IMG/VR virus record: IMGVR_UViG_2648501802_000003
Length of the DNA: 47,423 nt
DNA from: a virus
Taxonomy: Duplodnaviria; Heunggongvirae; Uroviricota; Caudoviricetes
Strand: one strand, 5' to 3'
Part shown: piece by piece, positions 2,696 through 38,433 of the stretch
Layout: each line of letters starts with the position of its first letter
Numbering within the stretch: position 1 is the first letter of the stretch
Program-made: the position numbers and the translations under genes
The notes under the pieces: generated by a model
Seen by the model: the letters and a program-made list of their open reading frames with translations, nothing else
Databases searched by the model: none
Told to the model about the DNA's origin: nothing

Positions 2696-5058
2696 TATAC
2701 GTATTCCTTAAGCTGCGTATCTGACAATGCTCTGTTCCAGAAACGGAGGTTTTTTATATGACCATTAAGGTGTCGTAATCCTGTCGTCGTTTGCCCCCCG
2801 ATACGAATCACGGCAGCTTCACGAATATATTTCCATACTGTTTTTGTTTCTGTGCTTATATGCTTATTTGCAAATGAGCATGTCATGCCGTCAGCCTTAA
2901 CCCTGAATCCCATAACGAGATCTCTTACTCCGCATGACTCATATACACGTCGGTTAGCCCCGCCTATATCGCAATACGAATAACCGTCCTGACTAATAGT
3001 TCCAGAAGAACCAAACCCCATAATAAATGGGCCCCCGGACTGGTGATTTTCTGAATCAATGACACGCGGTGCAGCATTATGAGAAATAAACCAGTTTTTA
3101 TGGACTTCCACCATGAACGTAAAAGGCATGGTATACATATTTTTCATCAGCGGAAATTTACATAAATCTGATGCACGAGTAGCTGGCTCTGTTGTCGTTA
3201 TGATAAAGGATGTTGCACAAGCACCATACTCAAATTGCGGGGTGGTTACTTCTATCCAGTCACCTGTTGCAAAAGACCCCACAGCTCTGTCGGCTGCAAT
3301 TTGCAACTGCGTACCAACCATTCCCCATTCTGGCAGACATTTCAGGGTTGCCTGAAAATATATCCATCCACTACCTGGATCGATTTCAAAGTTTGCTGTT
3401 AATAGCTGGGCATTACCACCCGTAATTTGTAGTTCATGGGTCTGTAATGACAAATAGGCGTCACAAAGGAAAGTGTATCCTTCCGAGTTATACCGTTCAA
3501 AACGGATACGTGCGCGAACATTGAGATCACTTCTTACCCTGAACGACGCGGTAACATACGGACCTTTACTGTACTGATCATCGCCAGTCACATCTATGCC
3601 TTTATTACCAGCAACTGTGCATATATTTCTCCCTGTTGTCGTTCCTGCTATGTCGCTTCCTACTGTGAAACGTCCATATTTAAACTCAAATTCATCTGTT
3701 GATGATGTTACAGATATACCACCGCTTTTATTCCAGGCATCAGGATTAAAACTATTTACGAACATGTTTGTTCGCTGATTCTCTATCAGCAAACCATATT
3801 TTTCAAAACGAGGAACGTTATTCCCTGCCACGGTAATATGCCCGGACTTATCAATATACGTTGCAGATGAAGCCCGGCTAAATTGGCATATGCCATTAAC
3901 AGGCATTGTTATTTCATCACTGCCGATGGTTATTGTTTTATAGCCCGGGGCATACCCTGTTATCGCTTCCAGAGAATCATTCAAGGGTAGCCAGATATCA
4001 GGAAGCGGAGGGACAGAAGCAGGATCAGCGGCATCTTCTGCAATCCGGGCTGCATTCTCTGCTCTTGTTGCGGCTGACGTTGCTTCTGTCTCGCTAGCTG
4101 CTGCTTTTGTTTCACTCGTCTTTGCGTTAGTTTCACTGGCTTTTGCAGCTTTTTGGCTATTAGCTGCCGCTGTTGCAGAACCAGCTGCAGCACTCTCGCT
4201 TTCGGCTGCTGCATCCTGACTGCTTTTCGCTGCAGTTTCGCTGGCTTTGGCATTCGTTTCGCTGGTCTTCGCTGCCGTCTGGCTGGACTTTGCGTTAGTT
4301 TCACTCGTCTTCGCTGCTTTCTGACTGTTAGCCGCAGCAGTTGCTGATCCGGCTGCTGAAGTCGCAGAACCGGCCGCCGCGCTCTCGCTTTCAGCTGCTG
4401 CAGCCTGGCTGTTTTTCGCCGCAGTTTCACTGGCTTTGGCATTCGTTTCGCTGGTTTTCGCTGCCGTCTGGCTGGACTTTGCGTTGGTTTCGCTCGTCTT
4501 TGCGGCTGTCTCGCTGTTTTTCGCGTTGGTTTCTGATTTTTTGGCTGCTGTCGCGGAGTTTGCCGATGCAGTCTGTGAGGTCGCTGCCGCCTGTGCGCTG
4601 TTAGCTGCATTCGTTTCTGAGGTTTTCGCCGCGTTCTTCGATGATGCCGCTGCAGTTTCGGATTTCTTTGCCACCGCTGCGCTCTGAGAGGCGGCTTCGG
4701 CGTTGCGTGCCGCTTCTTCCACCATTGCCTCAAAACGACGCAATGCCTCTGGCATGACATCATCTTCCGTCATGGCACCGAGAAAATCATTCAGCGTACC
4801 TGGTCTGGAACCTTCATAGACGGTAATGGTTCCGGCATGTGAAGGCGGAAAACCTTCAACCAGCAGGGTGACGCTGTACTGGCCATACTCAACATCCATG
4901 CTGTAACGCCCGGCTTCATCCGGATTTTCAGAGGCCACCGTGTTCACCAGTACCGTGGTGCTGTTACGCTTTGCCTTCAGTTGAATAGTGCAGTTCTGTA
5001 TTGGTTTTCCCGCACCATCTTTCAGCACACCTGAGATTTTTACTGCTGCCATATCCAC
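2695..5058 (-). CDS. stf: Side tail fibre protein Stf-like with divergent C-terminal domain
   Basis: 787-aa ORF; N-terminal ~120 aa (AVKISGVLKDGAGKPIQNCTIQLKAKRNSTTV...) resembles lambda Stf as I recall it; central Ala/Ser/Thr-rich repeats; C-terminal ~450 aa unlike lambda Stf. Confidence 0.8.
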   Translation of the reverse strand: MDMAAVKISGVLKDGAGKPIQNCTIQLKAKRNSTTVLVNTVASENPDEAGRYSMDVEYGQYSVTLLVEGFPPSHAGTITVYEGSRPGTLNDFLGAMTEDDVMPEALRRFEAMVEEAARNAEAASQSAAVAKKSETAAASSKNAAKTSETNAANSAQAAATSQTASANSATAAKKSETNAKNSETAAKTSETNAKSSQTAAKTSETNAKASETAAKNSQAAAAESESAAAGSATSAAGSATAAANSQKAAKTSETNAKSSQTAAKTSETNAKASETAAKSSQDAAAESESAAAGSATAAANSQKAAKASETNAKTSETKAAASETEATSAATRAENAARIAEDAADPASVPPLPDIWLPLNDSLEAITGYAPGYKTITIGSDEITMPVNGICQFSRASSATYIDKSGHITVAGNNVPRFEKYGLLIENQRTNMFVNSFNPDAWNKSGGISVTSSTDEFEFKYGRFTVGSDIAGTTTGRNICTVAGNKGIDVTGDDQYSKGPYVTASFRVRSDLNVRARIRFERYNSEGYTFLCDAYLSLQTHELQITGGNAQLLTANFEIDPGSGWIYFQATLKCLPEWGMVGTQLQIAADRAVGSFATGDWIEVTTPQFEYGACATSFIITTTEPATRASDLCKFPLMKNMYTMPFTFMVEVHKNWFISHNAAPRVIDSENHQSGGPFIMGFGSSGTISQDGYSYCDIGGANRRVYESCGVRDLVMGFRVKADGMTCSFANKHISTETKTVWKYIREAAVIRIGGQTTTGLRHLNGHIKNLRFWNRALSDTQLKEYV
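4100..4640 (-). repeat. In-frame tandem repeats inside stf encoding Ala/Ser/Thr-rich shaft (KTSETNAK...AAAESESAAAGSAT unit, two long copies plus shorter units)
   Basis: Protein segment KTSETNAKSSQTAAKTSETNAKASETAAK(N/S)SQ...ESESAAAGSAT occurs twice; many antisense and off-frame ORFs in the track across this DNA reflect the repetition. Confidence 0.55.
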
Positions 5059-5716: not shown

Positions 5717-6358
5717 AATTACCTCTCGCTTTTCTGCAATAAAAAAGGCGTCATTTCTGACGCCCGTATTGGGGTTATAAAATTCAGCTGATACTGATGC
5801 CTGCGGTGGCTTTCTTCATCACCACAACCAGCAAATCGCTGATACTTGCTGTGGGATACCCGCCATTTACCAGCCATGCCGATACAGAAAATTCCAGTGT
5901 CATGACACCACTGCCTGCAGGCATATCAATAACACCCGTATATATCAGCGTATTATCCAGAGCCGTTCGGTTATAAATTTCAGCACCGTTTTTTCGTACT
6001 ATCAGACGGCATGAGGAGTAGATATCAGTATGATCTTGCTCATGTTTAGCGCCACTGAATGCCACCGCCGGGATAACAATTTGCCGGTCAAACGGCTGAT
6101 CGTCATAAACCCTGACGGTAATGGTTCCTGATGGCCACCGCTCCGGTGCACGGGAGTCCCGGGGGAAAGCTTTGCCCACTGTTTTAACGAGATCGCCTTC
6201 AATCTGGTTCGCGGACAGTTTTCCCAGAACCCGGCAGTTCTCGTTAATCGTGACGTTGTTGAGCGTCCCGGAGTTCGCATTCACGTTACCGCTGATATCG
6301 GCATTTTTCGCCGTCAGCCGCCCGTCCGGTGTCAGGGAAAATGCCGGAGGATTACCGC

Positions 6359-9221
6359 CGCTGGTAATGGTGGGAGCCGTCAGATATTTCAGGAACACTT
6401 CGTTCATGAATATCTGATCGCCCTGACCAACAAACATCGGCTTTGTGTTGCCATTCGCAGGATTAACCATCGCAATCCTGTCCGCCGCCAGCAGCACCTG
6501 ACTCTGCATGCCGTCAGGGGTGTTCTCAATACCGGCACCAATACCCGCGATATAAAGGCGTCCGTCCTGCATCTGCTGCAGCTTCACAGCCCACATGCTG
6601 TTCAGGTTATTATTTGTATCAACCTGAACCTTCTGTATCTGCTGGATCGCCGCACTCTGGTCTTCCAGTTTCTTATTGACAGTCTGCGTGATTTCATTGC
6701 TGACATCCGTAATGGACGTCCTGATTTCAGCCAGGTCAGGCGCAAGCTGACCGTTATCAATCTGCGTCCACAGCTCCTGAGCCAGATGTGTTTTCCCTAT
6801 CTCTCCTTTGAAAAAATCCAGGTAACCTTCCGCATCATCGCTCGCCCGACCGATAGCCTCCACGAATGCCGATTTGCCAACAGTATTCACACTGCGGATA
6901 TAAAAGTAATAATCATGGCCCGGTTTGATATTGATACTGGCAGCTATCCAGTACAGCGCCGTGCCAAGATAGCGGGCTGTGGTTTCAACCTGCCTGATAT
7001 CCGCAATCCGCTTTTCCGAGAACCAGAACTCAAACTGTACCGTCGGATCATAAACGGCAAGATGCGGCGTGGCGGTTATCTGAAAATAGCCCGGCGTCAG
7101 CTCAATCCGCGACGGCGCTGCCGGTGCGGCAATCCGGAACGATACCGACGCCGGATCGCCCTGCTGCCCCCACGCATTTACTGCCCGGACTGTCAGCCTG
7201 TAGTTCCCCAGCGCCAGTTGTGTGAAGCGGTAAGTGGTTTCCGTCGTCCGGGCCGTGCTGACCAGCCGCTCACTGCCGTCATCCGCTGCCACGGTCAGGC
7301 GAAGCAGGAAGCTCACGCCCTTCACCACCTTCGGCGTATCCCAGCGCGCCAGCACCTGGTATTCCCCGCTGTCTGCGGTGACTTCGGCAGTCAGGTGCTG
7401 CACTGCTGGCGGCGTGACACCATTCACCGTGCCGCTCTGGTCACCGTCAAAGTGCGCCCCGTTATCCACGATGGCTTCTTTCTCCGGTACATGCTGCACG
7501 GCAGTGATGGCATACGTACCGTCATCGTTCTCACGGATACTCACGCAGCGGAACAGGCGCTGGCGCAGCGTCGGCAGCTTCAGCCCCCACACGCTGTATT
7601 CAGCAACACCGTCAGGAACACGGCTCACTTTTACCTTCACGCCGTCGGTGACGGACTGAACCTCCACGCTGACCGGATTGCCACTTCCGTCAACCAGGCT
7701 TATCAGCGTGGTACCGGAGGATGGCAGCGTGATTTCACGGTCGAGCGTCAGCGTCCGGGTCTGGCTGTTCACCGCCAGCACGCGACCACCGGTGCTGATA
7801 CCGACATAGTCATCATCGCAGATTTCAATGACATCGCCCGGTACATGGCGAAGCCCTTCAGCACCCACGCTGAAATCCACGGTCTGCGTCTCCAGCAGTT
7901 CCGTTTTAATCAGCCACAGCCCGGCGCGGTGTGCCTGCCCCCGGCTGGTACAGCCAAAGGCATCCATCTTCGTGACATTACGACCGTAACGGGCAATGGC
8001 CTGCGTATCTTCAACAAGCTCTGTCGCCGTCTCCCAGCCGTTGTCCGGGTCAATCCAGTTCACCTCAACGGCATTATGGCGGTCCTTCAGGGCGCTGAAG
8101 CTGTAGCGGAACGGCGCGCCATCATCCGGCATCACCACATTACTGCGGTTATAGGTCCACGCCTTATCCGACGGTCGGTCCTGCACGAACGTCAGCGTCT
8201 GCCCGTTCCATACCGGCATACAGCGCATCGCCGAGCAGAAATCACTGAGCACATCCCACGCCTTGCGCTGTGTGGTCAGGTACGCATTACAGGTGATGCG
8301 CGGCTCCGTGCCGCCAAAGCCGTCCGGCACTGACTGGTCGCAGTACTGGCCGATGACATACAGCGCCCATTTGTCCACATCCGCCGCACCAAGACGTTTC
8401 CCCATGCCGTAGCGCGGATGGGTCAGCATATCCCACAGACACCAGGCCATGTTGTTGCTGTATGCTGGCTTAAACGTTCCGTCCCAGATACCGCTGTATT
8501 GTCGAGTCTGCGGGTTATAGTTCGACGGCACCTGCAGAATACGCCCGCGCAGATGATAATTACGGCTCACCTGCTGGCTGCCGAACTGCTCCGAAATCCA
8601 CCTGTACGCCGACCAGTGCCGTGTTCGGGTAGCACTGTTTCACATCGATGATTTCGGTGTATGACGACCAGAGCGTTTTGTTCTGCAGCTGGTCTGGTGT
8701 GCTGTCCGGCGTCATCCTGCGCATCCGGATATTGAACGGGCGCGGCGGCAGGTTATCCACCACCACCGAGGCCAGATACTGCGAGGTGGTTTTGCCCTTA
8801 ATGGTGATGTCTTTTTCCGTCACCCAGCCACCATTACGCTGTATCTGAACCAGCAGGCGGACTTCCGACGGATTCCGGTCCCCCTTTGAGGTGGTTTCCA
8901 CCAGTGCCTGTACACCGAAGGTAAAGCGCAGACGGTCGATGTTTGCCGACGTGATGGTCCGGGTGATCGGCGTGTCATATTTCACTTCCGTACCCAGCAC
9001 CGTCTCGGAGCCGGAGGATTCAAATCCCTCCGGCGGTGACTGCTCCTGCTCACCGGTCCGGAACACCACCGTGACGCCGGAGATATTGGTATTCCCCTCA
9101 CTGTCCAGCACCGGCGTACTGTTCAGCAGCACGCTTTTTAATCCGTCCACCGGACCTTCAACCGGCCCTTCGCTGATGGCATCGATCACACTCAGCAGCT
9201 GCGTGGACTTCAGGTTGTCCT
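6359..9221. repeat. Tandem direct repeat copy 1 within J (one frameshift near 8593)
   Basis: Near-identical to 9222-12078; e.g. plus-frame ORFs 8891..9280 and 8648..8848 translate the same as 11748..12137 and 11505..11705. Confidence 0.8.
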
Positions 9222-12078
<2,857 letters not shown>

Positions 12079-12181
12079 TCGCTTCGCGCGGGGTATGCCC
12101 CTTACTGCTGCCTTTACCCATTCCTCACGCTCCATAAACGACAAAACCGCCCGCAGGCGGTTTCACATAAAACATTTTGCA

Positions 12182-12854
12182 TCAGCGACCAATCACCACA
12201 ACCTGACCACCATCCCCTTCGTCTGCCGTGCTGATCTCCTGAGAAACCACGCGTGACCCCACGCGCATTTCACCGTACAGAACAGGCAGAACATTGCCCT
12301 GGGCAACCATGTTATCCAGTGAGGAGAAATAGGTGTTCTGTTTGCCGTTATCCGTTGTCTGTGTACGGGGAGTTTCTGGCTTTCGGTGCCAGCATCTGCG
12401 CCACACCACCGAGCACCATACTGGCACCGAGAGAAAACAGGATGCCGGTCATACCACCGGCCCCAATGGCTGCCCCCCATGCTGCAAGGGTGGCTCCGGC
12501 AGTAAAGAATGATCCGGCAATGGCGGCTGCTCCCAGGACAATCTGGAATACGCCACCTGACTTGGCCCCGGCGACTCTGGGAACAATATGAATCACAGCG
12601 CCATCAGGCAGAGTCTCATGTAACTGCGCCGTTAACCCGGACGTGCTGACGTCCCGCCCGGCAATCCGTACCTGATACCAGCCGTCGCTCAGTTTCTGAC
12701 GAAACGCCGGGAGCTGTGTGGCCAGTGCGCGGATGGCTTCAGCCCCCGTTTTCACACGAAGGTCGATGCGGCGGCCAAATCGTTGCAAATCCCCGTAAAG
12801 GCAGATGCGCGCCATGCCCGGTGACGCCAGAGGGAGTGTGTGCGTCGCTGCCAT
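12182..12854 (-). pseudogene. I: Tail assembly protein I, frameshifted
   Basis: ORF 12348..12854 matches recalled lambda I N-terminus and stops at ...APKARNSPYTDNG; the I C-terminus (TQTTDNGKQNTYFSSLDNMVAQGNVLPVLYGEMRVGSRVVSQEISTADEGDGGQVVVIGR) continues in another frame (ORF 12182..12427); extra T in a T-run near 12372-12374. Confidence 0.7.
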
Positions 12855-13495
12855 TTGTCGGTATACCTCTCTCGTTTGCTCAGTTGTTCAGGAATATGGT
12901 GCAGCAGCTCGCCATCACCACAGTAAATGGCGGCATGATTCGGCACCGATGAACCAAAACAGCACAGCAGCACATCGTCCGGTTGTGCTGATGACAACGG
13001 CACCTGATACAGCCCTGTGGCCTCCAGATTATCCAGATAGAGATTCTGACCGTGACGCCACCAGTCATCCCCGCGATGAAAATCCGGCATCTCAATCCCC
13101 GCCAGATGATAAGCATCCCGGAACAGCGTGTAACAGTCCGTCACCCCGTGCTCAAAGCGCCGTCCGGTGAGATGCGGCACACAGCGGAACTTATGAATCG
13201 CCCCCCGGCAGACCAGCCACCACGGCAAATCACTCTGCACCTGCAGCCGCCGGTCAGTCTCACTCAGCCAGGGCAGACCACCGGGGTGGCTGTGGACCAG
13301 CGCCACAATCTCACCCTGCATTTCTGCCTGCAGCCAGTCCTCCGGCGACATCCGGAAATACGCCTCCGGCTCACCGGAGATATTCACGCAGGGGAAATAT
13401 CTTTCCCCCTCCGGCGTGCTTACCACGAAGCCGCACGACTCCGCTGGCGCACATCGCCGGGCGTGCGCCAGAATCGCTGATTCTGTCTGTGTCAT
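12752..13495 (-). CDS. K: Tail assembly protein K
   Basis: 247-aa ORF, MTQTESAILAHARRCAPAESCGFVV... matches recalled lambda K; lambda gene order. Confidence 0.85.
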   Translation of the reverse strand: MTQTESAILAHARRCAPAESCGFVVSTPEGERYFPCVNISGEPEAYFRMSPEDWLQAEMQGEIVALVHSHPGGLPWLSETDRRLQVQSDLPWWLVCRGAIHKFRCVPHLTGRRFEHGVTDCYTLFRDAYHLAGIEMPDFHRGDDWWRHGQNLYLDNLEATGLYQVPLSSAQPDDVLLCCFGSSVPNHAAIYCGDGELLHHIPEQLSKRERYTDKWQRRTHSLWRHRAWRASAFTGICNDLAAASTFV

Positions 13496-13500
13496 GGGAT

Positions 13501-14199
13501 TTACTGCGAAAGTTTGTTAATGGAAAGGAAGCCGCCAAAGTTGCCGACGTTATTGCGAAACTTACAGCCACTCAGGCATTTGCTGCATTTATCCTTCGTG
13601 ATATCGGACGTTGTCTGGTCATATTCATCCGCGACCGCCGGACCGTGATAACCGCACTCATCGCCGCGATAGGTCCAGGTGCAGGTGTTGGCCAGCATGA
13701 TACGTCCCGGAAAAACAGCGCCATCTGTTTCCGTCGGCGTGGACAGTACAAAGGAGGCACTCACCGCGCTCAGTTCGCTGCACTGCTCGATGCGCCAGCG
13801 GCTGATCACCTCCTGCTCCGGATCGGCGTCACTGTTTCCGTTAACGAAGTTCACCGCATCCAGAAAACGGGCGTAAACCTTACGCCGGACCACCGTTCCG
13901 CCGACCAGACTCTGCAGATCTTCCGCCATCCCGGTGACCATACCGTACAGGTTAGAAACCGTCAGCGTGGGGCGCGTACTGGTGCCTTTGCCATTCAGTT
14001 CAAAACCACTCCCCTGAATGGGATACGGCTGATACTGTCGCCCCTGCCAGGTGACCGGCTCACCTTTTTCGTTCAGCTCATTACAGAAAAAATAACGTTC
14101 TCCACCGACCTCTGTCAGGTCGATTTCCCAGAGCACCACGCTGGCCGACTGCTCCGCACGGGTGCATTCATTCAGTGTTTCCTGCCGGATATCCTGCAT
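13501..14199 (-). CDS. L: Minor tail protein L
   Basis: 232-aa ORF, length and position as lambda L. Confidence 0.85.
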   Translation of the reverse strand: MQDIRQETLNECTRAEQSASVVLWEIDLTEVGGERYFFCNELNEKGEPVTWQGRQYQPYPIQGSGFELNGKGTSTRPTLTVSNLYGMVTGMAEDLQSLVGGTVVRRKVYARFLDAVNFVNGNSDADPEQEVISRWRIEQCSELSAVSASFVLSTPTETDGAVFPGRIMLANTCTWTYRGDECGYHGPAVADEYDQTTSDITKDKCSKCLSGCKFRNNVGNFGGFLSINKLSQ

Positions 14200-30340: not shown

Positions 30341-30766
30341 GCTGTGTGACGAAGTAACCACTCTTAACAGCATAACCAATTTTTTACGTACGTAAACCAC
30401 TAAATGATATTTGCGAGAATGCTACCGAGTATTGAAAACACCACTACAAATACATAAGCAAATCTCAACAAATAACCAACAAATAATTTCCAGCGTTATT
30501 TTTAGCCAATTTAAATTGAACCTTCAAATTATAGAGCACTTATAAATAACAGCCATTAATATAAATTGGCTAATAGATTTATTTTTATTCAGCCAAGAGC
30601 CATGAATAGGATTCGATAGAAAAAAGTTCAGATAAAAATAGAGATCTACTTCACAAATTAAACGAGAAACCAAAACTTACATCTTGAAATAATCACATTG
30701 ATTAGATGAATATTTATCGCGCAGTGACATCATTTTTTAATAATAGTTCAAAAAAAAGGGCTCACG

Positions 30767-31849
30767 ATGAAAAAATTAACAGTGGCAATTTCTGCTGTAG
30801 CTGCATCAGTACTGATGGCGATGTCTGCTCAGGCAGCTGAAATTTATAATAAAGACAGTAACAAGCTGGATCTGTACGGGAAAGTTAATGCTAAGCACTA
30901 CTTCTCCTCTAATGATGCAGATGATGGTGATACTACTTATGCCCGTCTTGGCTTCAAAGGTGAAACCCAAATCAACGATCAACTGACTGGTTTCGGTCAG
31001 TGGGAATATGAATTCAAAGGCAACCGCGCTGAATCTCAAGGTTCCTCCAAAGATAAAACCCGTCTTGCCTTCGCTGGCCTGAAATTCGGTGACTACGGCT
31101 CCATCGATTACGGCCGTAACTACGGTGTAGCATACGACATCGGTGCGTGGACTGACGTTCTGCCAGAATTCGGTGGTGATACCTGGACCCAAACAGATGT
31201 GTTCATGACTGGTCGCACTACTGGTGTTGCAACTTATCGTAACAGCGACTTCTTTGGTCTGGTCGATGGCCTGAACTTTGCTGCTCAGTATCAGGGTAAA
31301 AATGACCGCACTGACGTAACTGAAGCCAATGGTGATGGTTTCGGTTTCTCCACTACTTATGAGTATGAAGGATTCGGCGTGGGTGCAACCTATGCTAAAT
31401 CAGATCGCACTGACGGTCAGGTCGCCTATGGTAAGAGCAAATTCAATGCCTCCGGCAAAAATGCGGAAGTATGGGCTGCAGGCCTGAAATATGATGCGAA
31501 CAATATCTATCTGGCTACCACATATTCTGAAACTCAGAATATGACCGTTTTTGGTAATAACCATATTGCAAACAAAGCACAAAACTTTGAAGCAGTAGCA
31601 CAATATCAGTTTGACTTCGGTCTGCGCCCATCTGTTGCTTACCTTCAGTCAAAAGGTAAAGACCTTGGTGTTCATGGTGACCGAGACTTAGTCAAGTATG
31701 TCGATGTCGGTGCTACTTACTACTTTAATAAAAACATGTCCACTTTTGTTGATTACAAAATCAACTTAATTGACGATAGTAAGTTTACCAAAACAGCTGG
31801 TATTGATACTGATGACATCGTTGCTGTAGGTCTGGTTTACCAGTTCTAA
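30767..31849 (+). CDS. nmpC: Outer membrane porin NmpC/Lc-type (OmpC family), uninterrupted
   Basis: 360-aa ORF with signal peptide [23 protein letters not shown], porin-like sequence ending ...VGLVYQF; located between Q and S on the opposite strand as in DLP12 and phage PA-2. Confidence 0.85.
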
Positions 31850-31855
31850 TCTGAT

Positions 31856-31898
31856 TACGAAAAAGATATGTTGCGGGAGGCTTTGCCTCCCCAACATA
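31856..31898 (-). terminator. Hairpin terminator candidate downstream of the Q-proximal late promoter (tR'-like); may also end nmpC transcripts from the other strand
   Basis: 13-bp stem TATGTTGCGGGAGG / CCTCCCCAACATA (one mismatch) with 5-nt loop; on the minus strand followed by TCTTTTTCG. Confidence 0.4.
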
Positions 31899-31986
31899 TA
31901 AGTGGCTCCCTCAAGCCACTTCCTTTAGGAGCACAACCTTGCTTCTAACTATATAAACCTTCTGTTATATATTACCCTTTATTTTT

Positions 31987-32010
31987 GGGGGCGTTGCAAC
32001 GCCCCATTTT
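31987..32010 (+). terminator. GC-rich hairpin followed by T-run (plus-strand terminator candidate; also a stem-loop within the putative short late leader RNA)
   Basis: Perfect palindrome GGGGCGTTGCAACGCCCC followed by ATTTTTAATAATTTTT. Confidence 0.4.
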
Positions 32011-32038
32011 TAATAATTTTTAGTAAACAATTGGCATA

Positions 32039-32437
32039 TTAATTAGAGTTATTAACAACGATATCCATCTCTAACCGGATATCTAATGCCATTAACATCC
32101 CTTCAATTATGCCCTCAGCCTTCTGTAACCTTTTCCCGATATAACCATCAGAGCAGCAATGCTTACCTGCCAGTGACATGAATGTCATACCGACTACATA
32201 ATAATCTACTAATAAATCGTGCAAATCGCTGTTGTTCTTTTTCAGACGGCCCATGCACCCGCAAATGATCATCGCGTCATCGTCACAACATTGCGGGCGA
32301 GATTTTACTTTTGAAGGAATTAATCCCTTAAAACCGGCGGCAATGGACGACCAGGTCACATCTTCATGATTATTAGCCGCCCACGCTCCCCAACGCTCAA
32401 GAACCATCTGAATATCACGCATCAACTTACTCCACAA
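32039..32437 (-). CDS. Q: Late gene antiterminator Q (phage-82/DLP12 QuuD-like)
   Basis: 132-aa ORF with Cys-rich motif ([14 protein letters not shown]); position between the nin region and the lysis cassette; resembles recalled QuuD. Confidence 0.75.
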
Positions 32438-32507
32438 AAATCAGACCAGAACGCCAATTACAAGCAAAAATCAACAAAACAGTATTAGTTGATTGTTATC
32501 TCTGACT

Positions 32508-32648
32508 TCATACTCCTGCTCCTGTCAGGGTTTTGGCGTAATTCTTCAGTATTCGGTAATCGGTCAAAACAGAACCGGGGAAACGATATAAGCGCAGACG
32601 CCCCCAGCGGTGGCGAAGAAGTTCTGCTATATTAAACTCAAACATCAT
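32508..32648 (-). CDS. ylcG: Small protein YlcG-like (46 aa)
   Basis: Hand-translated [46 protein letters not shown]; start overlaps rusA stop; coordinates +/-2 bp. Confidence 0.5.
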
Positions 32649-33007
32649 TCATTCCCCATTTCGGTGATGGTCAGTTCCAGCCTCCCACCTTTGGTAACAG
32701 GCATCTTCACAACGCGGTAATCAACGACCTGAGCATCATCCAGCCAGAAACCTGCTTTAGTGAGTGCGTCAAAAGCGGCTTTTTGCAGATTATCCAGGTC
32801 ACGGCGACGGCGATCCGGCATGTGGCACTCAATGCGGATTTTCACAGGCATAGCCAGGCCGATATCCAGCATTGCGCTTTTAATGATTCGGGCGACGTTA
32901 TCGCGGTATGCCTGCCCCTCTGCACTGACGTGCGTGCGCCCGCGATTATGGCGGTAATAGCGATTATTGCTCGGAGGCCAGGGTAATGTGATACTGTAGG
33001 TATTCAC
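32645..33007 (-). CDS. rusA: Holliday junction resolvase RusA
   Basis: 120-aa [45 protein letters not shown]...; GTG start; matches recalled RusA. Confidence 0.9.
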
Positions 33008-33294
33008 GCCTTAATAACCCCCTCTTTCAGCCAGATAACCTGTGTTCTCGCCATACCTTCCAGCGCGCATTCTTTTGCATATGCAGCATCGACAAAATGT
33101 GTGCGGCGGTCGATTTCGTCGTGGCAGGCAGAACATGCAATGGTGGCAATCAGGTCTGGCGGTTTGATACCGGTACCGCACAATCCAGCCAGCCGGATAT
33201 GTGCCAGTACAGACGTTTCAGAATTGCCATTACATACGCCAGGGATTCTTACCTGGCATTCCCGACCACGCGCTGCTTTTCTCAAATCAGCCAT
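33004..33294 (-). CDS. ybcO: YbcO-like putative nuclease (DUF1364)
   Basis: Track ORF 33004..33333; likely start at ATG 33294 ([23 protein letters not shown]...), Cys-rich. Confidence 0.7.
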
Positions 33295-33457
33295 GATTCC
33301 TCCTTGCTGCCAGTCGCAACCATTTTTTATCAACCAGGCTAGCGGTATATCCGAGCAGTGTTGGTATTTCGGATGGCTTCAGCTCAGGCTTACGCTTACG
33401 ACGATTTGATACTCTGTAGATGTGTCCGTTCATGACACGAATAAGCGGTGTAGCCAT
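33287..33457 (-). CDS. ninE: NinE-like protein (56 aa)
   Basis: Hand-translated [56 protein letters not shown]; ATG overlaps ybcN stop (TAATG); coordinates +/-2 bp. Confidence 0.6.
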   Translation of the reverse strand: MATPLIRVMNGHIYRVSNRRKRKPELKPSEIPTLLGYTASLVDKKWLRLAARRNHG

Positions 33458-33912
33458 TACGCCTCCTGCTTGTCGCGGAGCAGCTGGAACTCGCAGCTCT
33501 GCGGAATAGTCAGGTGGCAGCCAATATTCACCGCCCAGGCTTCAACCTTACACAGGAAGACATACATCTCTCCGGTATCAAGATCGGAGGTATGGCGTAA
33601 CGACTGGATAGTGGTGATATCACCGGTTACGACATCAACCAGGTCTTTGGTTTCATAACCGAGATATGTGTGTTTGAGAGCATCTTTTACCCAAGCTGGA
33701 GTGGCGAACGTTTTACCCCTGCTGATGAGGTATTCACTGATTTCGCTGTACCACATGTGGCTGAGTGCATTCTGGGAAAGACTGCGTTTCTCACGCCACG
33801 GTTTAAGCACCATGCGAAAGCATTTGCCCTCCTCCAGATAAGGCTGGATCTGCCGACCGATAGCGGTGAAGTTGCCGCGATGTAATTTGATGCCGTCTTG
33901 TGAGAGGTTCAC
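33457..33912 (-). CDS. ybcN: YbcN / NinB-family protein
   Basis: 151-aa [33 protein letters not shown]...[16 protein letters not shown]...; resembles recalled K-12 YbcN; nin-region position. Confidence 0.7.
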
Positions 33913-34010
33913 GCTTCACCTCCGCAGAGGTCAAACGCTAGATGCAAAGAATTGCAGGTGCATTTCTGCATCTGTGAAGGGAGAAGAGAGTTTGGATTGT
34001 ATGTGCGCAT
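33909..34010 (-). CDS. ylcH: Small protein YlcH-like (33 aa)
   Basis: Hand-translated [33 protein letters not shown]; stop overlaps ybcN GTG start. Confidence 0.4.
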
Positions 34011-34126
34011 AAACGTCCCCGTTTAGCGCAGAAGTCACCGGAGTTGTTCAGGCTCCGGTGACATAATTATGCCGTGTTGATTTCCCAAAATCAAAATCGA
34101 TAGAATTGCTCCTTCTTAAAACACTT

Positions 34127-34924
34127 TTACTCTCTGGAAGCTTTTCTTATCTCTCTTGGTGTTATATTAAAACGATTATGAAATCTTTCTGTAAAACGAG
34201 AAGGACACTTATAACCATTTTCTCTGGCAATCTCGCTTATAGGTTTTACCGTCGTTTGTATAGCAGACAACGCATTATTTAACCTCACATCGTCCAGTAT
34301 ACTTTGGAAACTTACCCCCTCGCTTGCTAGACGGCGATGTAATGTAGAAACAGAAATGTAGAGATATCGAGCAACCTTGTTTGCTGTCCATTTTGTGCCG
34401 GGTTCGGATAGCAGCAGGTTATAACAACGACTTATCAATGATTGTTTACTATATGATAAAAGTAAATGATTAACATGATTCACTCCTAACGAAAGTAGAA
34501 CGCCCATTGCTAAGTGCTCCTGAATTTTAGTTGAGAAGCCTCGGGAAACAGATGTTTTTAGTTGCTCCCAACAATATATTAACTCAGGATTCTGAGGTAA
34601 AAAGAAACTTGTTTTGTTACGTATTTGATCAGTTACCGTATAAAGTTTTTGGAAACTCTCAATTAAATCAATGGGTAAGTAAAGCATTTCTGCAAGATAA
34701 AGCCCTGCTTCAGGATAATTCTCAATATAAAATTCATAACCACAAGGAAATAATATTATTTGATTATTATCAACAGTTAAAGTATGCGTCTCCCAATTGA
34801 TAACTTTCTTTCCCTGACGGATACGACACAAAGCTGGCATAAGAGGCTTAACCCTATGAATCTCATGATGTTTATGCATCCGTATTTCTTCGATCTTTAA
34901 GTTAGTCTTACCTCTTGCCAGCAT
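34127..34924 (-). CDS. ybcM: AraC-family transcriptional regulator (YbcM-like)
   Basis: 265-aa ORF with C-terminal AraC-type HTH (...[33 protein letters not shown]...[26 protein letters not shown]); AT-rich. Confidence 0.8.
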
Positions 34925-34933
34925 ACTCTCACC

Positions 34934-35485
34934 CTACTTTATCTCATAAACTGGTGTTATCTCAGCGGTTGCGATTTTATTAGCATTAAGCATATAACCA
35001 ACTAACGCTCCGCTGGAGTTAGAATCTACAGGAATCTTTTCAGTTTTTAGAGCCCATACTTTAAACTGGTAATGATGTGGTTTATCTCCTTTAGGAGGAC
35101 ATGCGCCACCAAACCCAGCATAGCCAAAATCATTTCGGCCTTGAACAGCACCAGTCGGCAGTTTTGTTCCATCACGTCTCCCTGCATCAACGGGCAAATA
35201 TGTTATTGTTGCTGGAATATTAACAACAGTCCAATGCCACCAACCACTGCCTGTAGGTGCATCTGGATCATATACAGTTACGGCAAAGCTTTTGGTACCT
35301 TCAGGAACACCAGACCAGGTTAATGAGGGCGATGTATTACCACCTTCACACCCAAATCCAGAAAAGACATGAGACGTTGTAAGTTGCTCTCCTGTTTTTA
35401 TTTCATTACTAGTGACCTGAAATGCTGCAGCCTGCGCAGAAAATGTTATGAATGCCAATACAGTTGAAACGATAAGTGTTTTCAT
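34934..35485 (-). CDS. ybcL: Periplasmic PEBP/RKIP-family protein (YbcL/YbhB-like)
   Basis: 183-aa ORF with signal peptide MKTLIVSTVLAFITFSAQAAA and motifs ...VYDPDAPTGSGWWHW...GACPPKGDKPHHYQFKVWAL. Confidence 0.8.
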   Translation of the reverse strand: MKTLIVSTVLAFITFSAQAAAFQVTSNEIKTGEQLTTSHVFSGFGCEGGNTSPSLTWSGVPEGTKSFAVTVYDPDAPTGSGWWHWTVVNIPATITYLPVDAGRRDGTKLPTGAVQGRNDFGYAGFGGACPPKGDKPHHYQFKVWALKTEKIPVDSNSSGALVGYMLNANKIATAEITPVYEIK

Positions 35486-35949
35486 AAAAACCTCTTTGTT
35501 ATGACCTATCGTTATTTTATTTGATATTCCTTTATCTCATTATGCATAAAGGCGCAATGTTTATGCAAAAGCAATCACAATTGTACCCCCAACCCAATTA
35601 TTTGCCACAATATACACAAAGCACATTGATACTATCTAAAAACTCTGCTTTATTATTAGTAATACCTACGAAAGTCGGTGTTATTTTTTAACCTACCATT
35701 CAAAATACGTGACATACACCATTTTGCTCATAATAATTTGTCACGTATTTTCAGTATTTGAATCTGCGACCAAGAGTTCTCACCTAACAAATGATTAAGA
35801 TTGTATAGCTCATTTACTACCCCAATACAGCCGTACAAAACTCGCTTGTGGGAGCAAACAAAGTAATTACCCATTAAGTTTCGTCAAAGATAATTAATTC
35901 TGTCTTGCACTTTATCACCATAGCATAACTTAAAATCCGAGATCATTAT

Positions 35950-37476
35950 TTAGAAATAAATCTCACCATCAACCATATATTTGAGAGCACTTATCGCCTG
36001 CTGGGCGGATATTACTTTCATTAAAGGATAGTGTTTAAAAACAATGCCATTCATAAAATAGATATCACAGGTTTTATTATCCGTATTAATTATGATTTTT
36101 TCGAATGTTTTATAGGCAAGTGTACGGCATAACTCTCGTCCATTTTTACTGGTTAAGTCAATAGCATAAAAATCACTGAATGAATTTACACCTTTACTCT
36201 TCAAAGTTTTCAATGATACCGAAGCCCTTCGTAATTCCTTATCTAATAGTCTTATTTTCTCTGCTATAGCGGTAACTTCAGGCGCGACAGACAATGCAAC
36301 GATTAAATTATTAATTTTCATCTGAAGCTCAATAATTTTTAACTCTAAAGTTTCATTAGCATCTTTCTTGTTTTCAACTGGTTGAATTTTGCTACAATTA
36401 AAAAGCAATTCATTAATGATATTATAATCAACCAAATCTCTTTTTATTGATGGCCTGTCACATCGATGTAATCTTCTCATCGGACAAACATAATAGCCAT
36501 GCAAACTTCCAGATACCGCATGAACAATCATGGTATTACCACAAGCCTCACACTTCATAACTGTTCGAAGTAGATTTATTAGCATAGGATTCTTGCTACT
36601 ATTGCTAATACCAAAAGGTGCCAACCGAATTTCCTGTACAGCGTAAAACAAATCATCTGATATAACTCTGGGATAATAGCCAGCGATTTCACTTATCCCT
36701 TTCCCTCTTGCACGATATGAAGGTACGCATATACCTATCAGAGCTTTATTCGCTAATAATTTTTCAATTACAGAAGGTCCCCATGCACTTTCTTTTCCTG
36801 AGAAATTCTTTACAGCATGATCATTTAAATACTTGGCTATTGCATTCAATGAGCGCCTTTCCATCCTGAGTTTAAAAATTAGCTCAATAGTTTTCACCCT
36901 GTCGGGGTCTGGAACAAAAGCCGTTCTTTTGTCATCTAAGGAGAGCCATCTCGGACAAGACGCCGTCATAATCGTACCTGATTCCATTGCATCCTGCCGT
37001 TTTTTCTTCCATGATAATTTAACCCGACTTGACTTTATCTCGCTTTCTTCATTTGCCCTTTGTGCTATAAGTATGGCTTTTATTAATGAATATGGCTCAT
37101 TCAAAGAGTCAATATTATAGACTGTATTGTCGCAAAGAGTTATAACATCAATACCGTGATTCAAAATCAATTTCAGACGTTCAATCGCTTCACCGACTTT
37201 TTCTCTTGAAAGTCTGTCCAGACTTTCAACTAACAATGTAGTTCCTGGCAATATATAACCATGCTCTATAGCATCTAAAAATTCCGAAAAAGCTCCTGAT
37301 TGTGCATGCTTTCCTTTGAATGCACTTAATCCTAAATCTTCATATGTTATGGTATCAAGATAATAATCACTATTTACCTTTAACCATTCAGCAATAAGTC
37401 TTCTCTGTCGGTTTAATGAGTCACCAGACATCTGACCTGGTGATGAAAATCGCATATATGCTATGGCTTTTTTCAT
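35950..37476 (-). CDS. ybcK: Large serine recombinase (YbcK-like)
   Basis: 508-aa ORF; N-terminal resolvase-type catalytic region (AIAYMRFSSPGQ...), central recombinase domain and Cys-cluster zinc ribbon (CPRWLS...CEACGNT...YYVCPMRRLHRCDRP). Confidence 0.8.
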   Translation of the reverse strand: MKKAIAYMRFSSPGQMSGDSLNRQRRLIAEWLKVNSDYYLDTITYEDLGLSAFKGKHAQSGAFSEFLDAIEHGYILPGTTLLVESLDRLSREKVGEAIERLKLILNHGIDVITLCDNTVYNIDSLNEPYSLIKAILIAQRANEESEIKSSRVKLSWKKKRQDAMESGTIMTASCPRWLSLDDKRTAFVPDPDRVKTIELIFKLRMERRSLNAIAKYLNDHAVKNFSGKESAWGPSVIEKLLANKALIGICVPSYRARGKGISEIAGYYPRVISDDLFYAVQEIRLAPFGISNSSKNPMLINLLRTVMKCEACGNTMIVHAVSGSLHGYYVCPMRRLHRCDRPSIKRDLVDYNIINELLFNCSKIQPVENKKDANETLELKIIELQMKINNLIVALSVAPEVTAIAEKIRLLDKELRRASVSLKTLKSKGVNSFSDFYAIDLTSKNGRELCRTLAYKTFEKIIINTDNKTCDIYFMNGIVFKHYPLMKVISAQQAISALKYMVDGEIYF

Positions 37477-37730
37477 GGTGACACCTGCTAACGTATGCTT
37501 TTATAAACCTTAGTGGTGGGATATAATTTTTGTTTAATTTTTATTTAAAAAGACAATTAAGGTCACATTATCTTGAATATACAACAATAATCGTATTGCA
37601 ATTTTCTTACGCCATAATCTTGAAAGCACAAAAGAATACATAAAAAATAAAGACATTAACAAAAAGCATAAAACGAGGCTCATATAAATATAAGAGCCTC
37701 CATATTTTAGTCGTTTAGAAACAAATTATT

Positions 37731-38063
37731 TTAATGTGGTGTGCTTCGTGACAATAAATTAATAACCAACACACCGGCACAAATCAACATCATGCCTATA
37801 ATGGCTGGCAGGTCCAGCCGTTGGCCGAAAAATCCCCATGACAGTAAACTAATCAGGACAATACCGACTCCTGACCAGATAGCATAAGCAATCCCTGTAG
37901 GAATATAAGCCAGCGTCTGAGCTAATAACCAGAATGATGCACAATAACAAATAATTGTACCAACAGATGGCCATAACCGTGTAAAACCTTCTGAAAACTT
38001 CATTAAGGTTGTACCAATGACCTCTGCAAGTATTGCACCACCAAGATAAATATAAGGGTTCAT
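37731..38063 (-). CDS. emrE: Small multidrug resistance efflux transporter EmrE
   Basis: Track ORF 37731..38117; from ATG 38063 the 110-aa product MNPYIYLGGAILAEVIGTTLMKFSEGFTRLWPSVGTIICYCASFWLLAQTLAYIPTGIAYAIWSGVGIVLISLLSWGFFGQRLDLPAIIGMMLICAGVLVINLLSRSTPH matches recalled E. coli EmrE. Confidence 0.9.
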   Translation of the reverse strand: MNPYIYLGGAILAEVIGTTLMKFSEGFTRLWPSVGTIICYCASFWLLAQTLAYIPTGIAYAIWSGVGIVLISLLSWGFFGQRLDLPAIIGMMLICAGVLVINLLSRSTPH

Positions 38064-38130
38064 AGCATATTCTTTCCTGTTCAAACTGGAGAGAATTGTA
38101 CTACAGTTTGAACTCAACTCACCTGTTTCA

Positions 38131-38433
38131 TCATTGTGTTCCCATTGATGTTCTTTTATATACCCTCAATACCCGTTTCATCGCGACACTCTGGCGACAC
38201 TCCTTAAAAATCAGATTCGTGCTCACCTTTCCTTCCCGTTCTTCTCTGGTAGCGAACCGGTAATACACCGTTCGCCAGACCTTACCATCAACGACCAGGA
38301 TTCCTGCCCGCGCCATTTTAGCCGCAGCCTGATTTATGCTGGTTACGGTTGCGCCTGTTACCGCGGCAACGTCCTGTGCACAGAAGCTCTTATGCGTCCC
38401 CAGGTAATGAATAATTGCCTCTTTGCCCGTCAT
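38131..38433 (-). CDS. ren: Ren protein (Rex exclusion escape)
   Basis: 100-aa ORF MTGKEAIIHYLGTHKSFCAQDVAAVTGATVTSINQAAAKMARAGILVVDGKVWRTVYYRFATREEREGK... matches recalled lambda Ren. Confidence 0.8.
   Translation of the reverse strand: MTGKEAIIHYLGTHKSFCAQDVAAVTGATVTSINQAAAKMARAGILVVDGKVWRTVYYRFATREEREGKVSTNLIFKECRQSVAMKRVLRVYKRTSMGTQ

Follow-up and report, generated by a model that had tools for sequence, protein, structure and literature searches.

The ren-to-ybcN slot and its genes

Here we consider an AT-rich accessory island of a DLP12-type lambdoid prophage and, in particular, the gene of the large serine recombinase YbcK that lies in it. The prophage makes up the content of the IMG/VR virus record IMGVR_UViG_2648501802_000003, a stretch of 47,423 nucleotides (hereafter the window), and is read on its reverse strand. 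According to the listing of open reading frames (ORFs) and RefSeq, the slot between ren and ybcN holds emrE, ylcJ, ybcK, ybcL and ybcM, with the island genes on the minus strand (Table 1). We tentatively suggest that ylcJ-ybcK is the integration module of a small nested element, which entered at the stop codon of emrE and now travels with the phage. The main rival to this reading is ordinary lambdoid mosaicism, which we consider nearly as likely.

The GC content of the island is 36.2% versus 51.6% in the rest of the window, and no other 4-kb stretch of the window is as low. The intergenic regions 35486-35949 and 37477-37730 have GC contents of 32.8% and 27.2%, respectively. A previous sequence-only reading of the window had described precisely such an AT-rich block with AT-rich intergenic regions. 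It had also placed emrE, ybcK, ybcL and ybcM, as well as the ren and NinB-like neighbours, where the ORF listing has them, and Pfam supports its assignments of all four proteins. Its inventory lacked one gene, the 49-aa ylcJ annotated by RefSeq, which accompanies ybcK in nearly all of the 80 IMG/VR loci that we used for the comparison of gene order and of ybcK alleles. No RNA family was found in the island with Rfam, and PADLOC gave no match among the island proteins of the window.

The object is the known gene set of K-12 DLP12, i.e., an already-annotated cargo block. A 5.1-kb region is 100% identical to that of E. coli ST2747 (NZ_CP007394.1) and 99.6% identical to DLP12 of K-12 MG1655, where IS3 cuts the match in two; the match to DLP12, which the sequence-only reading had proposed, is thus borne out. 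The genes, their order, their orientation and their RefSeq names are the same as in K-12, in which emrE-ylcJ-ybcK-ybcL-ybcM are b0543-b0546. Unlike the K-12 region with its IS3, the window represents the ST2747 version, and its nmpC-like porin is intact with 360 aa, whereas nmpC of K-12 is broken by IS5. The porin has its own AT-rich upstream region, with 28-32% GC at ~30400-30850.

Table 1. Features of the island and of its surroundings (window coordinates; L numbers denote individual loci used for comparison).
Feature	Coordinates	Strand	Evidence or remark
nmpC/ompC-like porin beside quuD	30767-31849		intact 360-aa ORF
ybcN (NinB-like)	33457-33912		neighbour on the nin side
Boundary palindrome TTGATT-N6-AATCAA	34077..34094	.	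delimits the variable slot on the nin side; closely followed downstream by the 33-aa ORF before ybcN
Whole AT-rich accessory island in the ren-to-ybcN slot	34097..38166	-	GC drop; breakpoints 34096 and 38167 from prophage L004 with unrelated cargo
ybcM, AraC-family regulator, 265 aa	34127..34924	-	Pfam HTH_18/HTH_AraC; RefSeq ybcM
ybcL, PEBP/Raf-kinase-inhibitor-like, N-terminal signal-like segment, 183 aa	34934..35485	-	Pfam PBP E = 7e-42; NCBIfam equivalog PRK09818
ybcL upstream region, common to the fliE-locus copy	35486..35640	-	blastn match 33910-35640 to L007/L002 stops at 35640
268-bp segment between ybcL upstream region and ybcK 3' flank	35641..35908	.	DLP12-type configuration only
Perfect 13-bp inverted repeat AAAATACGTGACA-N24-TGTCACGTATTTT	35702..35751	.	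sole perfect repeat of such kind in the island
ybcK, large serine recombinase, serine-integrase architecture, 508 aa	35950..37476	-	Pfam Resolvase, Recombinase, Zn_ribbon_recom
ybcK leader, 27% GC	37477..37730	-	includes ylcJ and, as reported for K-12, a Rho/NusG-dependent terminator region
ylcJ, hydrophobic ORF, 49 aa	37534..37683	-	RefSeq; Pfam YlcJ E = 2e-35
Intrinsic-terminator hairpin downstream of emrE	37675..37700	-	GAGGCUC...GAGCCUC, then U-rich tail; palindrome with 12-nt arms
Junction zone, final two emrE codons and 3'UTR core (AAATTATTTTAATG in the window)	37703..37740	.	right-hand end of the ybcK indel in both comparisons
emrE, SMR multidrug efflux pump, 110 aa	37731..38063	-	Pfam Multi_Drug_Res; NCBIfam EmrE; PHROG category 'moron'
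ren, final backbone gene ahead of the island	38131..38433	-	PHROG 142 Ren-like exclusion protein; RefSeq in relatives

Separate modules and the copy at the fliE locus

The window was compared with other E. coli loci by blastn, and the genome counts given here refer to 5426 complete E. coli genomes. Related prophages with and without the block delimit the slot at 34096/34097 on the nin side and at ~38139-38167 on the ren side, and the presence of the block is not uniform: prophage L004 fills the slot with unrelated genes. The island is accessory cargo, as proposed by the sequence-only reading, in that related prophages hold other genes at this place. In O157-type and L005-type prophages emrE-ylcJ-ybcK is kept and the segment 34097-35908 with ybcL-ybcM is swapped for other DNA. 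The order P-ren-emrE-ylcJ-ybcK is constant across the 80 loci and is followed by at least seven cargo sets. The alternative cargo includes P22AR_C together with a BstA-family protein, and a convergent alpha/beta hydrolase. In L005 the BstA abortive-infection family match is a 309-aa protein encoded downstream of ybcK (3210-4139, minus strand; PADLOC, E = 4e-121). Since a BstA-family gene occupies the slot in some relatives, the slot is also a hotspot of defence genes.

The full island is found in 666 genomes, ybcK and emrE occur together in 1397, and a ybcL-emrE junction without ybcK is present in 2627. The island is a mosaic and not a single unit: emrE, ylcJ-ybcK and ybcL-ybcM assort separately. 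The 268-bp segment downstream of ybcK occurs as a single copy in each of 673 genomes and nowhere else in the sample; at the 80 loci it is always linked to ybcL-ybcM, and phage Perceval and O157 have unrelated segments in its place. At the nin side the seven cargo configurations diverge right after AATCAA(A), at ~34096/34097. Both arms of the boundary palindrome are kept in the seven configurations, with a variable spacer and with one single-base arm change in one locus. This palindrome, which sits ~10-30 bp upstream of the 33-aa ORF preceding ybcN, may be a module-boundary or regulatory site.

The genomes with the ybcL-emrE junction, about half of the sample, carry a second copy of porin-ybcM-ybcL-emrE between yedK and fliE, which is 88-92% identical to the first. 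It spans 2296-6153 of L007 and 5903-8153 of L002 and corresponds to 30429-32137, 33910-35640 and 37724-38139 of the window, being devoid of 32138-33909 and of 35641-37723, i.e., of the 2083 bp with ylcJ and ybcK. Scars of the phage backbone are left in this copy, namely the 3' end of quuD, the 5' end of ybcN and 8 bp of ren. It looks like a set of domesticated morons that remained after the loss of all phage genes including ybcK. Because the remnant retained them, we read emrE and ybcL-ybcM as host-useful morons. The loss of ybcK from a remnant that kept the porin, ybcM, ybcL and emrE fits a gene serving the element rather than the host.

In E. coli HH45 (NZ_CP116411.1; L030, 2070-4223) the YbcM, YbcL and EmrE proteins of the fliE locus are identical to the DLP12-type alleles, and the ybcL-emrE spacer has kept its fliE type, which indicates that prophage and chromosomal remnant underwent a gene conversion that skipped ybcK.

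The island resembles the lambdoid morons of the Juhala/Hendrix concept, for which PMC9928086 cites reviews: it is AT-rich and flanked by backbone genes, emrE has a predicted terminator of its own, and the slot has at least seven fillings in the relatives. It differs from them in that ybcK encodes a recombinase and is not a host-benefit gene, and in that it was lost from the fliE remnant.

The indel at the emrE stop

In two independent comparisons of loci with and without it, ylcJ-ybcK is a discrete indel of 2.07-2.08 kb. The first compares the fliE-locus copy with the window: the match breaks off for 2083 bp (35641-37723) and restarts at 37724, 7 bp beyond the emrE stop. In the second, prophage L020 (ren-emrE-hydrolase) is without 2073 bp of Perceval (ren-emrE-ylcJ-ybcK-P22AR_C remnant-hydrolase), and the match restarts at ~37703. 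In both cases one end of the indel falls into one and the same 15-bp stretch behind the emrE stop. Both pairs therefore offer occupied and empty alleles of one site, with a conserved gene carrying the insertion at its 3' end. The insert of Perceval is moreover flanked by a direct repeat of 38 bp (84% identical, final 16 bases identical, E = 9e-7) that comprises the final two emrE codons and the 3'UTR, and a different terminator hairpin precedes each copy. None of 42 control windows has a repeat as strong.

This layout recalls the SCCmec-type cassettes, which are moved by Ccr large serine recombinases. Under the proposed reading, a cassette with a recombinase and variable cargo is likewise found at the extreme 3' end of a gene that is left intact, with short direct repeats containing the core (Perceval/L020). 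Unlike in SCCmec, however, the repeat next to ybcK is clear in one configuration only, the target is phage-borne, the recombinase gene is single, and other copies of the target are never occupied.

Several observations weigh against a nested element. At its far end the indel shows no conservation, with the unique 268-bp segment in the window and the P22AR_C remnant in Perceval and O157. The junction with the backbone has the backbone palindrome only, with no common terminal sequence. Among the four intergenic regions of the island, neither direct nor inverted repeats rise above chance (repeat search and Smith-Waterman alignment with shuffles). The core-like 15-mers at the far end in the DLP12 and O157 types match at 9 of 15 bases, which is equalled in 39% of control windows, and a flanking repeat is absent in 21 of 27 loci of the YbcK family. 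The emrE of the fliE locus is followed by ybcK in 0 of 5426 genomes, despite 2627 with the site empty. No excised form turned up for the P22AR_C type, since emrE is found within 800 bp of P22AR_C in no genome, and emrE lies close to the backbone in two genomes, both with internal deletions that left a fragment of the recombinase. A 4-bp microhomology, AAAC, is present at both window junctions and could account for the deletion at the fliE locus without a recombinase. No directionality factor was identified. Finally, ordinary lambdoid mosaicism, too, produces stray partial duplications and breakpoints that coincide with the ends of genes.

According to the latter explanation, ybcK is a passenger that was put beside emrE once by illegitimate recombination and was spread by homologous exchange through Red/RecT or RecA. 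It would be kept for a role in trans, with its sites outside the island; it might, for instance, resolve multimers or serve as a second integrase with an attB at another place. We regard this as possible, if on balance doubtful. The breakpoints do vary by configuration (35640, 35909, 37703, 37724, 38139 and 38167), the gene conversion in HH45 skipped ybcK, the phages in question encode Exo, Bet and Gam, and emrE with short flanks occurs in three different contexts. The missing repeat pair in the window and the missing hop to the emrE of the fliE locus also speak for mosaicism. However, the two independent pairs with and without the gene share one 15-bp end zone at the emrE stop, and repeats flanking the recombinase gene, Perceval and two weak cases included, occur in 4-6 of the 27 family loci versus 0 of 42 control windows. 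As for a second integrase, no E. coli prophage was seen with its ends beside ybcK.

Of the two ideas put forward by the sequence-only reading, the nested cassette receives some support, short of proof: there is a discrete indel at the emrE stop and one 38-bp repeat, but the far end is variable, the window itself has no repeat and the fliE-locus emrE is never occupied. The other idea, a recombinase-controlled switch in which YbcK would invert or delete an adjacent segment and so toggle the cargo genes in the manner of Hin, Gin, Cin and Pin, is not supported, and we hold it to be extremely improbable. It could draw on the cargo genes and the long, AT-rich intergenic regions that adjoin the recombinase gene, on the chemistry of serine recombinases, which is common to YbcK and these invertases, and on the perfect 13-bp inverted repeat at 35702-35751. 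A spacer of only 24 bp, however, separates the arms of this repeat, with no gene in between, and no inverted-repeat pair above chance brackets any segment of the island. Flanking inverted crossover sites and orientation polymorphism are both missing: colinearity in a single orientation holds for each of the 80 IMG/VR loci and for 666 of the 673 genomes with the DLP12-type segment. Besides, YbcK is of the integrase type with 508 aa, unlike the invertases of ~190 aa.

The 13-bp inverted repeat is a lead, and only that, to a candidate protein-binding site. It was considered as an attP-like site and rejected, as it has no counterpart beside any homologue. The motif CGTGAC, common to this palindrome and the 3' end of emrE, was uninformative, with 30 occurrences in the window versus 21 expected.

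With respect to expression, the hairpin downstream of emrE has variants in other loci (GAGGUUC/GGGCCUC and GUGGUUC/GGGCCGC) that pair solely via G-U wobbles on the emrE-sense strand. This wobble-only pairing and the U-rich tail mark the hairpin as a probable RNA terminator and not a DNA site. In L020, the prophage of the hydrolase type, a different hairpin stands at the position of the emrE terminator. Matches resembling promoters are no commoner than expected by chance. In K-12 a Rho/NusG-dependent terminator ('tybcK') was reported in the untranslated region upstream of ybcK (PMC4150792), and ybcK DNA was described as a polyphosphate-dependent binding site of Hfq connected with silencing (PMC10954037). 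EmrE is reported to be an inducible moron of phage Perceval, with induction in an LF82 lysogen (PMC9928086). As for ybcK, we infer that it would stay silent in lysogens and be expressed on N-antiterminated early read-through.

YbcK, its relatives and the proposed element

YbcK shows the domains of a large serine integrase (Resolvase, E = 5e-19; Recombinase PF07508, E = 2e-14; Zn_ribbon_recom PF13408, E = 8e-8) and belongs to PHROG 95 'integrase'. The sequence-only reading had recognised a resolvase-type N-terminus and a zinc ribbon, and its recombinase retains the active-site S11 on alignment. In a family alignment of 16 sequences, with relatives down to 28% identity, the catalytic residues Y7, R9, S11, Q15, D87, R88 and R91 and the zinc-ribbon cysteines C309, C312, C331 and C339 are invariant, and the motif YMRFSS is kept in 50 of 50 E. 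coli alleles. The family profile matches the integrase structures of YokA, A118, PhiC31 and TP901-1, and its alignments to YokA and A118 Int span residues 141-455 and 190-470, respectively; a search of PDB with the single YbcK sequence gave no match. Profile positions 370-446 match a designed coiled coil weakly (E = 0.007). Similarly to A118/LI Int, PhiC31 Int, SPbeta YokA/SprA-type and TP901-1 Int, YbcK has catalytic, recombinase and zinc-ribbon domains in this order, perhaps followed by a coiled-coil-like stretch, with the catalytic Ser and Arg conserved. Unlike with these integrases, its similarity needs a family profile to be seen, and its gene lies in the early region of a phage with tyrosine Int and Xis.

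The gene is intact in 79 of the 80 IMG/VR copies, which represent 50 alleles, and its dN/dS against the window allele is mostly 0.07-0.27; as judged from these values, ybcK is under purifying selection. Plaque-forming phages carry it too. The entire island is 100% identical in PhiR70_1; for ybcK the identity is 97% in Perceval, 4A7, D2 and others, in Perceval together with other cargo. The intact alleles, the low dN/dS and the presence in plaque-forming phages argue that YbcK is not a dead relic. We therefore find it very unlikely that ybcK was captured from another phage and is decaying without function. The silencing in K-12 (PMC4150792, PMC10954037), the lack of a recognisable att pair and the existence of truncated and fused copies would agree with decay, but dN/dS is ~0.1 over the 50 alleles and the catalytic residues are all kept. 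As the same phages encode tyrosine Int and Xis, YbcK is not the sole integrase of the phage. Both points accord with mosaicism as well: purifying selection means a function but does not tell which, and the infectious ybcK phages have an integration system in Int and Xis.

The sole published phenotype that we found is a better tolerance to sabinene upon over-expression of ybcK (PMC7181518), with nothing on recombination, and no recombination assay of YbcK was found in the literature. The remark of the sequence-only reading that the role and the sites of the recombinase are uncharacterised agrees with this, the literature found being confined to stress tolerance and silencing.

The YbcK family is mainly confined to Enterobacterales and comprises proteins of ~505-540 aa. 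The relatives occur in two settings. The first are junctions of an integrated element with host DNA, beside ssrA in Atlantibacter, lepA in Erwinia, host genes in Ewingella, host metabolic genes in Pantoea, and yedK, with umuDC, in one enterobacterium (L112). Lambdoid prophages of Pantoea and Atlantibacter provide the second setting, their replication-to-Q region. In some prophages (L008, L012, L018) the recombinase is located at the tail-fibre end. YlcJ-like ORFs or conserved flanks were not found beside distant homologues. In L112 (8992-13291) the YbcK-like recombinase, 52% identical, directly follows yedK and precedes umuC-umuD; the yedK neighbourhood is the site of the E. coli prophage remnant.

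One branch of the family is a 541-aa relative, 39% identical to YbcK, whose DNA is 92-96% identical across Mixta, Serratia, Leclercia and Rahnella (L121-L124, ~9920-13600). It is located at one and the same point of a T2SS-E-like ATPase gene, whereas the host sequence is only 44-49% identical among these genera, and the element begins ~60 bp ahead of the ATG of the recombinase. L121, L122 and L124 have two AbiTii genes further downstream, and none was detected in L123. Judging by these alignments, the four loci represent site-specific integration with the att junction just upstream of the recombinase gene, i.e., a defence island that a serine integrase has been spreading recently. Where near-identical recombinase genes are found in unrelated contexts, the common DNA consists of the gene with 60-220 bp upstream and 0-60 bp downstream.

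In three loci diverged direct repeats of a neighbour gene flank the recombinase. In L017 the repeat belongs to DUF1367 (229 bp, 82%). In 'Candidatus Pantoea alvi' (L126, 9256-12859) a recombinase in the opposite orientation stands between the full replication gene P and a partial P copy of 380 bp, 75% identical, that covers codons 77-223. In a plasmid-like contig of Citrobacter koseri (L014, 7652-7826) it stands between two diverged pilV/shufflon-like genes; the intact pilV-like gene there starts with ~17 tandem CTTGTTT heptamers, which look like a slipped-strand phase-variation tract. The DUF1367 duplication was rejected as proof of targeted insertion: L025 and L111 have the same recombinase-DinI-DUF1367 arrangement without the upstream fragment, and an illegitimate crossover is therefore an equally good explanation for the repeat of L017. 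The latter locus, an Atlantibacter-like lambdoid prophage, also has in its early region, upstream of the YbcK-like recombinase, a gene of 646 aa with a SIR2_2 domain (5755-7695), which may be another defence cargo.

Taking the nested element as the preferred, if tentative, reading, we suggest the following course of events. The island would have been built up from AT-rich cargo modules, each acquired separately, within the hypervariable ren-to-ybcN slot. The emrE stop, which precedes ybcK by ~250 bp, would mark the target junction, with the variable cargo downstream of ybcK, a layout like that of genomic islands with the integrase at one end. YbcK dimers would bind attP and attB and then synapse, as other large serine integrases do. 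Ser11 would cut the four strands at the central dinucleotide, half of the complex would rotate, and the ends would be rejoined; the reverse reaction would need a directionality factor.

In the lysogen ybcK would be kept quiet by the emrE terminator, the Rho-dependent terminator of the leader and nucleoid silencing. YbcK would be made mainly during infection or induction, via N-antiterminated read-through. At present the module would be inherited with the phage and reshuffled by homologous recombination. In favour of the scheme are the intact and conserved recombinase, the discrete indel, the constant side of the module (P-ren-emrE-ylcJ-ybcK) opposite a variable one, the relatives, which behave as integrases, the silencing reported in K-12 and the fliE remnant devoid of ybcK. 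The comparisons show the anatomy, the intact active site, purifying selection, the boundaries of the indel, the settings of the relatives and the lack of inversion, whereas YbcK as the agent of the insertion, the placing of its att sites and the timing of its expression are parts of this scheme that we infer.

A wider proposal is that YbcK-family recombinases define very small integrative elements inside other mobile elements, each with a recombinase gene, an att-bearing leader of ~60-250 bp and optional cargo. In E. coli, ylcJ-ybcK with its downstream cargo (ybcL-ybcM or BstA) would sit site-specifically at the stop of phage-borne emrE and parasitise lambdoid phages. Elsewhere in Enterobacterales the family would hop between nin regions, prophage ends, plasmids and host genes, sometimes with a replacement piece of the target gene, and it is to such a piece that P, DUF1367 and the pilV-like gene would owe their diverged direct repeats. 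In this breadth we consider the proposal unlikely.

As to the meaning of these results, K-12 annotation has included these genes for decades, EmrE and YbcL have been studied well, the island itself was already known, and the finding is mostly ordinary. What the comparison adds is that the 'island' consists of three or more modules. An intact serine integrase under purifying selection is kept in about a quarter of complete E. coli genomes and in several infectious phages, within the early region of phages that also have a tyrosine integrase, and half of E. coli genomes have what looks like a domesticated remnant next to fliE with the host-useful cargo only. If YbcK is indeed the integrase of a mini-element for phage-borne genes, it would be a simple E. 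coli recombinase that is independent of host factors and has a defined short target, and the island would be an example of phage-nested mobile elements shuttling defence and resistance cargo.

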